A stretch of 64,000 nt of DNA, taken from positions 32,001 to 96,000 of the forward strand of contig OZ242184.1 in the NCBI GenBank assembly GCA_965205855.1, read 5' to 3'. Position numbers and translations under genes: made by a program. A model generated the notes under the pieces. That model was not told where the DNA came from. It worked only from the letters and a program-made list of their open reading frames with translations, and searched no databases. The stretch is from Thermodesulfobacteriota bacterium. Its GTDB lineage: Bacteria > Desulfobacterota_D > UBA1144 > Nemesobacterales > Mycalebacteriaceae. This document shows, piece by piece, positions 5,140 to 42,598 of this stretch (position 1 is the stretch's first letter; every line of letters begins with the position of its first letter).

Positions 5140-5775
5140 TTAAAATCTGACTTCCAATTTCGGGCCGATACTCAGTCCCCAAATATCGTCAATACTGTTG
5201 TCATTTGTCCACAGCGAATAAACAAACTGTCCGTCAATACCTATTGTTGCTCTCTCGGAAACTGAAAAACCAAATCCCAATTTTCCGACAAATGGTATGG
5301 ATGTTGTGGCACTGATTTTATCTCCGACATCGTAGAAATTTACTCCGGTTCCCACTCCAAGGTTGAACTCTACCGAACCGTTTCCGGCTTTCAGAACCAA
5401 AAGGGCTGGAAGCAGAATATGGTTTAAAGTTTCTCCGTCCACAGTAACCATTACATTAGCCCCTCCGCTTGTACCCGTGACATCAAATTTGCTTGAACTA
5501 ACTGTCCATCTTGGTTCAAATTCCAGGGCAAAACTGCTTTCTCCGAGAAAAACTCCGAGTTTGGGAGCCAGATAAAAACCGTTTTCTTTTACTTCTACAT
5601 TCGTCACGGTAACGCTACCGATTGTCAAGGAACCTTTGGAATCCAATTTTTGATAGGCATACCCCGAACTTAAACCAAAATAAGCTTTTGGCGAACCTGT
5701 CTGAGCCTTTGAAATACAAAACGGAAAACCCGTCAAAAACAATACAGAAACAGCGAGAATTAAAGATTTTCTCAT
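5140..5775 (-). CDS. Outer-membrane beta-barrel protein (small, OmpW/porin-like)
   Basis: Signal peptide, alternating amphipathic strands, C-terminal LEVRF. SD GGAGG 6 nt upstream of ATG. Confidence 0.75.
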   Translation of the reverse strand: MRKSLILAVSVLFLTGFPFCISKAQTGSPKAYFGLSSGYAYQKLDSKGSLTIGSVTVTNVEVKENGFYLAPKLGVFLGESSFALEFEPRWTVSSSKFDVTGTSGGANVMVTVDGETLNHILLPALLVLKAGNGSVEFNLGVGTGVNFYDVGDKISATTSIPFVGKLGFGFSVSERATIGIDGQFVYSLWTNDNSIDDIWGLSIGPKLEVRF

Positions 5776-8160: not shown

Positions 8161-8189
8161 TTGACAGGGCAGCCACCCCTGTATATTTT
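8161..8189 (+). promoter_or_regulatory. Sigma70 promoter for leader copy B
   Basis: TTGACA-17 nt-TATTTT. The closing helix begins 8 nt after the -10. Confidence 0.65.
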
Positions 8190-8196
8190 GATCTTC

Positions 8197-8295
8197 GGCA
8201 CTTACTCACAGATACCCGCTTGTCGGGTCTCTGATAAATAGAAAACTCTGCTTACAGAGGAATAATCAGGCTTCTCAATCTGTTGGGTAAGTGCC
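8197..8295 (+). ncRNA. Structured leader RNA, copy B
   Basis: GGCACTTACTCA-CAGAT pairs with ATCTG-T-TGGGTAAGTGCC. Core ACCCGCTTGTCGGGTCTCTGATAAATA. Inner hairpin CTCTG-CTTA-CAGAG. Confidence 0.8.
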
Positions 8296-8337
8296 AAGAC
8301 CCGGCGCTTTGCGCCCAACCATGAGGAGGTGGTAATT

Positions 8338-8706
8338 ATGGTCAAAAATGTAAAAGAAGTGGGGACGAAGATTGTAATTTGTTTGCTAATTGTTTGTGTG
8401 GTAACAAGTTGCGGCAGGATAGCATCACCTGTCAGTTCTACAATACTGGGAGATAAGGTGCTACCCTGCGAGACTATCAGTTTAGAGATAGCCGATAATA
8501 ACAAAGCTATCAGTGAATTAAGGGGTGAGGTAAAAGGTAGAAGGGCGAAGAATATCATTCTCGGCATTACTGGCTTTTTCTTGATTGTTCCGCTTTTCTT
8601 TATGGACTTTGGAAGCGCGGCGGAGACGGAAATCATTGCTTTCCAAAAACGCAATAGCGCGTTGAAGCGTCTTGCGGGTTCAAGGGACTGCGAAGCAACT
8701 TATTGA
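8338..8706 (+). CDS. Hypothetical lipoprotein with one internal hydrophobic segment
   Basis: SD GAGGAGG at 8323-8329, ATG 8338, lipobox VTSC. Confidence 0.7.
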   Translation: MVKNVKEVGTKIVICLLIVCVVTSCGRIASPVSSTILGDKVLPCETISLEIADNNKAISELRGEVKGRRAKNIILGITGFFLIVPLFFMDFGSAAETEIIAFQKRNSALKRLAGSRDCEATY

Positions 8707-29889: not shown

Positions 29890-29961
29890 GGCGGCGTAGC
29901 TCAGAGGTAGAGCAGGGCTCTCATAAGGCCCCTGTCGGAGGTTCGAGTCCTCCCGCCGCCA
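29890..29961 (+). tRNA. tRNA with CAT anticodon, probably elongator Met, CCA not encoded
   Basis: GGCGGCG/CGCCGCC acceptor stem, GGGCT-CTCATAA-GGCCC, TTCGA loop. Ile2 is not excluded. Confidence 0.9.
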
Positions 29962-42524: not shown

Positions 42525-42598
42525 GGGGATGTAGCTCAGCCTGGGAGAGCGCTGCCTTCGCAAGGCAGAGGTCGGGGGTTCGATTCCCCTCATCTCCA
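42525..42598 (+). tRNA. tRNA-Ala(CGC), CCA not encoded
   Basis: GGGGATG/CATCTCC acceptor with G3-U70, CTGCC-TTCGCAA-GGCAG. Confidence 0.95.

Follow-up and report, generated by a model that had tools for sequence, protein, structure and literature searches.

A structured leader upstream of a lipoprotein gene

In the 64,000-nucleotide stretch of DNA analyzed here (the window), an open reading frame at 8338..8706 on the + strand encodes a predicted lipoprotein of 122 amino acids with a VTSC lipobox and a second hydrophobic stretch, and with no Pfam or NCBIfam match that would place it in a known family. The translation start region of this gene (8314..8340, + strand) contains CCCAAC at 8314-8319, TGAGGAG at 8322-8328, the Shine-Dalgarno sequence GAGGAGG, and an ATG at 8338-8340 that begins 8 nt 3′ of GGAGG. 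A consensus scan reveals a sigma-70-type promoter upstream at 8161..8189 (+ strand), in which a 17-nt spacer separates TTGACA (8161-8166) from the −10 hexamer (8184-8189) and 10 of 12 positions match the consensus. Between promoter and gene lies a leader, here named copy B, and the region 8190-8345 folded as a single sequence at −58.4 kcal/mol (z = −4.88), with 0 of 200 shuffles as good. An earlier note on this DNA had proposed that two segments of the leader pair with the start region and that a GGCGC-TTT-GCGCC hairpin sits in the connecting loop. Direct reading of the sequence located every base that it named and bears out both pairings: CTTCTCA (8271-8277) and TGAGGAG form 7 bp including one G-U, CCCAAC is the exact complement of GTTGGG (8282-8287), and the hairpin occupies 8303-8315. 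No terminator-like T run was seen after copy B on the + strand. At the gathering threshold, Rfam annotates only three tRNAs in the 64-kb window, at 24112-24182 on the − strand and at 29890-29961 and 42525-42598 on the + strand.

In the minimum free energy fold of copy B, helix P1 joins 8197-8213 with 8278-8295 in 17 pairs. The P1 5′ strand (strand a, 8197..8213, + strand), which is variable in sequence between copies, covers the anti-RBS strand and is followed by the P2 hairpin (8214..8228, + strand; ACCCG, loop CTTGT, CGGGT) and the P3/P4 arm (8231..8269, + strand), formed by P3 CTGAT/ATCAG, P4 CTCTG/CAGAG and a conserved internal loop, AAATAGAAAA / GAATA. The anti-RBS region (strand a′, 8270..8295, + strand) consists of a junction with CTTCTCA and the P1 3′ strand (8278-8295) with GTTGGG. 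Further downstream, the GGCGC-TTT-GCGCC hairpin, P5 (8303..8315, + strand), shares bases with the CCCAAC target and with the 3′ strand of a competing helix X described below.

Copy B belongs to a family of leaders. Exact and gapless repeat searches missed the other copies, and nhmmer with B as query recovered two more in the window, both also matched by a covariance model. Copy A (5952-5826, − strand; fold z = −6.6) lies upstream of a gene for a 211-amino-acid secreted protein (5140-5775), and copy C (21571..21707, + strand; fold z = −9.4) lies upstream of a broken DNA methyltransferase gene. The P1 3′ strand of copy C includes ATCTGTTGA, perfectly complementary to TCAACAGAT at a site overlapping the ATG. 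The methyltransferase gene (21738-22550, + strand; N-terminus ...GDNLPIMRG...DPFP) is split into at least four reading frames, and sister genomes (L021, L049) carry intact orthologues behind the same leader. Outside the window, the 1.40-Mb genome holds two further copies, E and F. A truncated remnant, D, lies a short way before the window (L001:1103-1186, genome 30602-30685). Remnant D has a B-like 5′ half (P1 5′ strand, P2, P3 5′ strand and P4) without the P1 3′ strand or flank, and runs directly into the Shine-Dalgarno sequence of a CC0125/CC1285-family lipoprotein gene (NCBIfam E = 1.3e-20).

Starting from copies A and C and then rebuilt with 22 matches, a covariance model recovered 81 copies (78 distinct). 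They come from 34 genomes, out of 101 in the order and 120 in the Dadabacteria phylum, and are spread over 5 of 32 genera, no genome holding more than 7. When start codons were picked by a fixed rule, 61 of the 78 distinct copies had one no more than 70 nt from the flank and 17 had none. Three B-like copies without such a start, L057, L061 and L074, all in one genome (G002), are either stand-alone RNAs or decaying loci. The leaders are associated with genes for exported proteins: 56 of the 61 downstream proteins have a hydrophobic, export-type N-terminus, 27 with a lipobox as well and 29 with the hydrophobic N-terminus only, and the remainder comprises 3 methylase-like and 2 other proteins. 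At locus L011 (genome G007), the gene behind the leader encodes a product with a prepilin-type N-terminus (GFTLLELLIV...), not a lipoprotein.

Two mutually exclusive conserved folds

Across 76 copies the promoter keeps a fixed register relative to the leader, with T in 59/76 at both −35 and −12; the bases from −12 to −7 resemble TATAAT, 52 copies having A at −11 and 49 having T at −7. This register predicts that the RNA begins at the foot of P1, about 8196-8197 in copy B, and ~25 nt upstream of helix X. P1 has a median length of 15 pairs in the family and reaches 22, and the 5′ and 3′ strands of the same copy pair at −18.8 kcal/mol compared to −6.3 kcal/mol for non-own strands, the own strand being the best partner in 43 of 48 representatives. 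In alignments that were fitted to a model, and whose pair counts lean towards the modelled helices, the 6 modelled outer pairs of P1 all covary and 97.8% of their cells are paired; P2, at 84.9% paired cells, shows compensatory changes in 3 of its 5 pairs; and P3 covaries at each of its 3 pairs, again with 97.8% paired cells. P1 is a real helix. Throughout the family, P3 is joined through its conserved internal loop to a variable P4, and in 63 of 75 copies local folding pairs the conserved flank that follows P1 with downstream sequence, as P5. The conserved bases directly after P1 are C-AAG; a CCA after the P1 stem is not conserved among family copies. Many copies (L015-L018, L027, L043, L068, L070, L081, L083) also carry a conserved CGGAGAUCA-like element after P5 that is complementary to the core GGUCUCUG, making it a further possible partner of the core strand. 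Two other candidate features of copy B were dropped: a hammerhead-like CUGAU...GAAA, which is absent from the other copies, and a small upstream open reading frame starting in the P2 loop, whose would-be start codon is not conserved.

A second fold draws on the same strands. The helix X 5′ strand (8221..8230, + strand; TGTCGGGTCT), the best-conserved stretch in the family, overlaps P2, and its 3′ strand (8297..8306, + strand; AGACCCGGCG) lies within the conserved flank CAAGRCCCGRCRCC. RNAalifold pairs CAAGRCCCGRCRCC with the invariant core UGUCGGGUCU as helix X, and returned no helix other than X when run on a MAFFT alignment of five copies in which P1 was misaligned. All 10 pairs between 8221-8230 and 8297-8306 are possible in copy B, and across 78 sequences the two halves of the helix have 96.3% and 89.2% of cells paired in the model-fitted counts. 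The flank is almost invariant, and its only variation, R opposite U and Y opposite G, is pairing-neutral. The anti-RBS region of copy B folds on its own into a hairpin, H (CTCAA, loop TCTG, TTGGG; −5.4 kcal/mol), formed from the junction and the inner P1 3′ strand. H has at least 5 pairs in 69 of 77 copies (mean z −1.59), its loops are 77% pyrimidine (290/376 bases), and its arms are copy-specific, pairing at −5.8 kcal/mol with their own partner versus −3.1 kcal/mol with non-own arms (0/20000 shuffles reach the observed mean). Helix X crosses P1 and uses strands that also belong to P2 and P5, and H uses one that also belongs to P1, so the two folds exclude each other, with P3/P4 common to both. 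Both P1+P2+P5 and X+H are conserved and under selection.

Kinship with sRNA-Xcc1

Permissive Rfam scans of copies B, A and C returned chance-level matches only, and copy B had no match to sRNA-Xcc1 (RF02221) even at E up to 10. The same model matched 10 of 18 other leader loci scanned, at 32.9-39.7 bits against a threshold of 53 and always on the leader. Over 40 genomes it gave 24 matches in 10 genomes (27.7-46.3 bits), all on leader copies; the gathering score of 53 bits was reached in 0 of the 40, and 14 control genomes gave no match. The RF02221 consensus fold in the printed alignment is exactly X + P3/P4 + H. Its closing helix (~9 bp, with a G/C-rich 5′ strand and a CC.GGC 3′ strand) is helix X in copy B, its first hairpin is the P3/P4 arm, and its second hairpin, set between that arm and the closing 3′ strand, is H. 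The internal loop of the first hairpin reads AAUACAA.ACCC...GGGGAAUAA in RF02221 and GAAUAYAA.ACCC...GGGAAAUAA in most Dadabacteria copies; copy B keeps AAAUAGAAAA and GGAAUAA, but CUCUG/CAGAG replaces the CCC/GGG stem. The sub-threshold matches and the shared fold together identify the Dadabacteria leader as a distant relative of sRNA-Xcc1 to which a 5′ strand of ~30 nt has been added. On these sequence comparisons, copy B appears to be a member of a Dadabacteria-specific offshoot of the sRNA-Xcc1 kind of RNA that lies below the family threshold. Its X + P3/P4 + H core is known; the masking 5′ strand and the envelope-protein cargo on an sRNA-Xcc1-like RNA are new.

sRNA-Xcc1 was first found in Xanthomonas campestris pv. 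campestris, and the accessible text of PMC2996969 documents it as a separate RNA species of 88 nt by Northern blot and RACE. This RNA corresponds to the X-closed domain, not the P1-closed domain. The accessible parts of later reports call sRNA-Xcc1 trans-acting and place it before symE in integron cassettes (bioRxiv 10.1101/2025.06.18.660453), ahead of an ORF6N protein in APSE phages (10.1101/2020.03.17.996009), and in multiple copies in Xylella, including a five-copy array (PMC12189769). In the portions of this literature that were covered, sRNA-Xcc1 is a trans-acting, virulence-linked small RNA with no mechanism given. The main texts searched, in which the main 2011 sRNA-Xcc1 paper is represented through other papers, contain no description of the Dadabacteria leader and nowhere describe sRNA-Xcc1 as an antirepressor leader.

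We searched viral contigs with a pattern made from the Rfam consensus and obtained at least 103 stretches. Among 20 loci scanned, 19 carry RF02221 above threshold, and the canonical phage copies score 57.7-77.5 bits. At least 66 distinct canonical copies were reduced to 29 representatives, in which the H region pairs with the start region of its own downstream gene at −17.4 kcal/mol compared to −11.3 kcal/mol for non-own regions (0/20000 shuffles); in 17 of the 29 the own region falls within the top 10%. Eight of ten examined proteins encoded downstream of canonical copies have antirepressor-type domains (P22_AR, AntA, KilA-N, Bro-N, pRha). A P1-like strand is absent from canonical copies, with the own pairing at −13.2 versus −12.6 kcal/mol and 3828/20000 shuffles reaching the observed mean. 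C4 and isrK lie beside sRNA-Xcc1 in 2 of the 20 loci scanned (L202 and L219), both of which the C4 model matches. There, isrK, C4 antisense RNA and sRNA-Xcc1 stand in a row within ~800 nt (L202:2362-3141, L219:843-1672), and the L202 row also includes c4-a1b1, so that several small immunity-type RNAs occupy one prophage region. Two other contigs carry sRNA-Xcc1 copies in tandem ~250 nt apart (L234:1183-1515, L244:7044-7310), an arrangement that recalls the Xylella array in the accessible text of PMC12189769.

The mapped Xanthomonas RNA and the phage loci bear on an explanation that we consider unlikely, in which the X-closed domain (about 8221-8310) is released or made separately as a C4-like small RNA whose H region pairs with the downstream start region in cis or in trans, the 5′ strand being a trimmed part of the precursor. 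The discrete 88-nt product described in the accessible text of PMC2996969, the X-to-X span of the Rfam model, the position of canonical copies before antirepressor genes and, in 2 of 20 loci scanned, beside C4 and isrK, and the tracking of own start regions by canonical H regions all fit such an RNA. The conserved Dadabacteria promoter, however, lies upstream of the 5′ strand and not at X, and this strand co-varies with the 3′ strand and is therefore selected, not discarded; the lack of a terminator-like T run after copy B on the + strand and of a C4 match on B, A and C also counts against a separate product.

A riboswitch-like aptamer is less probable still. Here the core (P2 loop, P3/P4 internal loop and junction) would bind a small molecule or protein that reports envelope state, and P1 would be the switching helix. 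Conserved bases concentrated in loops and junctions, as many as 7 copies in one genome, the prevalence of export-type N-termini in the cargo (56/61) and a P1/anti-RBS layout that is typical of translational riboswitches are all in keeping with an aptamer, but P1 is far longer than usual switching helices, and the same core precedes phage antirepressor genes, with which a shared metabolite signal is hard to picture. No aptamer matched among the riboswitch classes of Rfam 15, where the only matches were at chance level (COG2908, E = 1.2; NCRUPAR_2, 9.7); MIR5229, at 0.035 on the opposite strand, was likewise a chance-level Rfam match.

Matching to the downstream gene and a proposed switch

We compared each anti-RBS with the start region of its own gene and with those of other copies. 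In copy B, the junction and P1 3′ region pairs with its own start region (−25..+6) in a 14-bp RNAduplex of −19.4 kcal/mol, rank 1 of 61; the 60 non-own regions give a mean of −10.2 (sd 2.5) and a best value of −15.9 kcal/mol. The match in copy B is more than chance. Copy A uses a different sequence (AACCTTCGTT versus AACGGAGGTT) and reaches −20.2 kcal/mol with its own region (rank 4/61), so that, as the earlier note had claimed for these two copies, the sequence differs and complementarity to the local Shine-Dalgarno sequence is kept. The other copies of the source genome with a nearby start behave similarly: copy E pairs at −19.3 kcal/mol (rank 1/61) and copy F at −15.8 kcal/mol (rank 2/61), and non-own means for B, A, E and F range from −9.4 to −12.7 kcal/mol. 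Because 48 of the 61 copies fell together when start regions were grouped at 0.70 identity, stricter thresholds were used. Among the de-duplicated copies, own means are −11.2 to −12.6 versus −9.8 to −10.1 kcal/mol for non-own regions, and 0-54/20000 shuffles reach the observed mean, depending on the clustering threshold. A generic pyrimidine-rich anti-Shine-Dalgarno sequence explains the baseline of about −10 kcal/mol.

The broader claim that the anti-RBS follows its cargo gene holds for part of the family. It stands for B, A, E and F, in the permutation tests and for canonical sRNA-Xcc1, but it is not universal: the own start region beats 90% of foreign ones in 9 of 19 copies of the genus of copy B and in 2/3 and 1/1 copies of two other genera, but in only 4 of 37 copies of the largest Dadabacteria genus, which is chance level, and among all 61 copies it has a median rank of 27. 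Literal copying of the start region by the P1 5′ strand is at best weakly indicated, the longest shared word averaging 4.5 nt for own versus 4.2 nt for non-own regions (329-478/20000 shuffles reach the observed mean).

An anti-RBS that matches its own ribosome-binding site and is covered by a long stem suggests that the leader probably switches translation of its gene. We give about an even chance to a model in which copy B is the 5′ leader of the lipoprotein mRNA and acts as a cis-acting anti-RBS switch on its own gene. The anti-RBS would consist of the junction CUUCUCA and the inner P1 3′ strand, complementary to the leader's own Shine-Dalgarno region. In a full transcript starting at the foot of P1, the 5′ strand would pair with the anti-RBS to form the 17-bp P1 while P2 and P5 would occupy the two strands of helix X, leaving the ribosome-binding site about half open and the gene, we propose, on. 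If the 5′ strand were removed or occupied, or if a factor stabilized the X + P3/P4 + H fold, the anti-RBS would be freed to pair with the start region and turn the gene off. Masking of an inherited anti-RBS by P1 would thus make on the default state, and 5′ processing, a protein or a ligand are candidate triggers. The complementarities with their covariation, the two exclusive conserved folds, the promoter register and the link to exported proteins are shown; that switching occurs, and its direction and trigger, we infer.

We modelled this step by removing the 5′ strand in silico and reading out the unpaired probability of the Shine-Dalgarno window, which fell from 0.52 to 0.17 in copy B, 0.34 to 0.01 in A, 0.82 to 0.28 in E, and 0.54 to 0.18 in F. 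With the anti-RBS shuffled, the window was unpaired at 0.73, 0.20, 0.43 and 0.41, respectively. Family means over 61 copies were 0.44 for full-length and 0.35 for truncated leaders; truncation lowered the probability by more than 0.2 in 15 of the 61 and raised it in 4. Several points count against the switch. Family-wide, truncated leaders differ from truncated leaders carrying a shuffled anti-RBS only at p = 0.057; the largest genus matches its genes at chance level, and the own region has a median rank of 27 among the 61; 17 of the 78 copies have no start close to the flank; the pair counts lean towards the modelled helices; and in copy B at 37 °C the P1 state, at −58.4 kcal/mol, compares with −42.0 kcal/mol when the 5′ strand is blocked and −40.7 kcal/mol when X is enforced, a gap of ~16 kcal/mol across which no switching is expected without an outside agent.

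This strongly favored P1 state, together with an RNA that starts at the foot of P1, the lack of gene-specific matching in the largest genus and the occurrence of remnants and cargo-less copies, would also suit a 5′-terminal stabilizer, in which P1 tucks in the 5′ end against 5′-end-dependent decay and the match to the ribosome-binding site is a relic inherited from sRNA-Xcc1 that now does little. We consider such a role improbable, on a par with an aptamer: B, A, E and F match their genes at about 14-20 kcal/mol through sequences that differ between copies, which requires co-evolution after the copies diverged, and the X flank and H are still conserved although P1 alone would suffice for protection.

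The cis-acting switch is our preferred reading. With somewhat less confidence, we suggest that the sRNA-Xcc1 kind comprises widespread, upstream-encoded anti-RBS RNAs, analogous to C4 and tuned to the next gene (in phages, mostly an antirepressor gene), in place of a general trans-acting small RNA, and that Dadabacteria took up this module for envelope genes and added the masking 5′ strand. If so, masking of the anti-RBS by an additional strand converted a repressing module into a leader with two states, an example of how a module can be rebuilt by the addition of one strand. The analysis places an unannotated RNA, found at the head of dozens of envelope protein genes in an uncultured phylum, both structurally and evolutionarily, and suggests a testable job for the sRNA-Xcc1 family, in which each copy would control the next gene downstream through a matching loop. 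Since anti-RBS and target co-vary, the design is easily tested by compensatory mutations.

Comparison with known systems

C4 of phages P1 and P7 and CI of P4 are leader-encoded RNAs whose exposed segments pair with a ribosome-binding region farther along their own transcript; antisense and target vary in concert from one heteroimmune phage to another, and C4 is released by RNase P from a tRNA-like stem. The analogy to C4 and CI drawn in the earlier note fits the way of working, as some canonical relatives of the leader adjoin C4 and isrK and precede antirepressor genes, but not membership: even with E allowed up to 10, the C4 model (RF01695) matched none of copies B, A and C, and the CCA is not conserved. 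Canonical sRNA-Xcc1 copies share prophage regions with C4 and isrK in L202 and L219. Unlike C4, the Dadabacteria leader lacks a tRNA-like end, and most of the anti-RBS of copy B is held within P1, not in loops. That part would therefore be double-stranded in a P1-closed domain, and the note's further model of that domain as the C4-like antisense fits less well for this reason and in light of the 88-nt Xanthomonas RNA mapped in the accessible text of PMC2996969, which corresponds to the X-closed domain.

The combination of P1 and anti-RBS resembles, in its arrangement, translational riboswitches, and the add adenine riboswitch and the refolding of hok mRNA are established examples of fold-back control. 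As in these, one strand of the leader can pair with a 5′ partner or with the Shine-Dalgarno region, giving two exclusive folds. Unlike in these, P1 is much longer, and the gap of ~16 kcal/mol in copy B argues against simple equilibrium switching.

The closest likeness is to sRNA-Xcc1 itself. Both RNAs have closing helix X, a hairpin with internal loop AAUA.AA...GGRAAUAA, hairpin H with its pyrimidine-rich loop, a CRCCYUU tail after H, and an H region complementary to the start region of the gene directly downstream. In contrast to sRNA-Xcc1, the Dadabacteria leader has the extra ~30-nt 5′ strand that forms P1 and P2, its promoter sits before this added strand, and its cargo consists of chromosomal envelope protein genes, where canonical copies precede genes for antirepressors, symE or an ORF6N protein.
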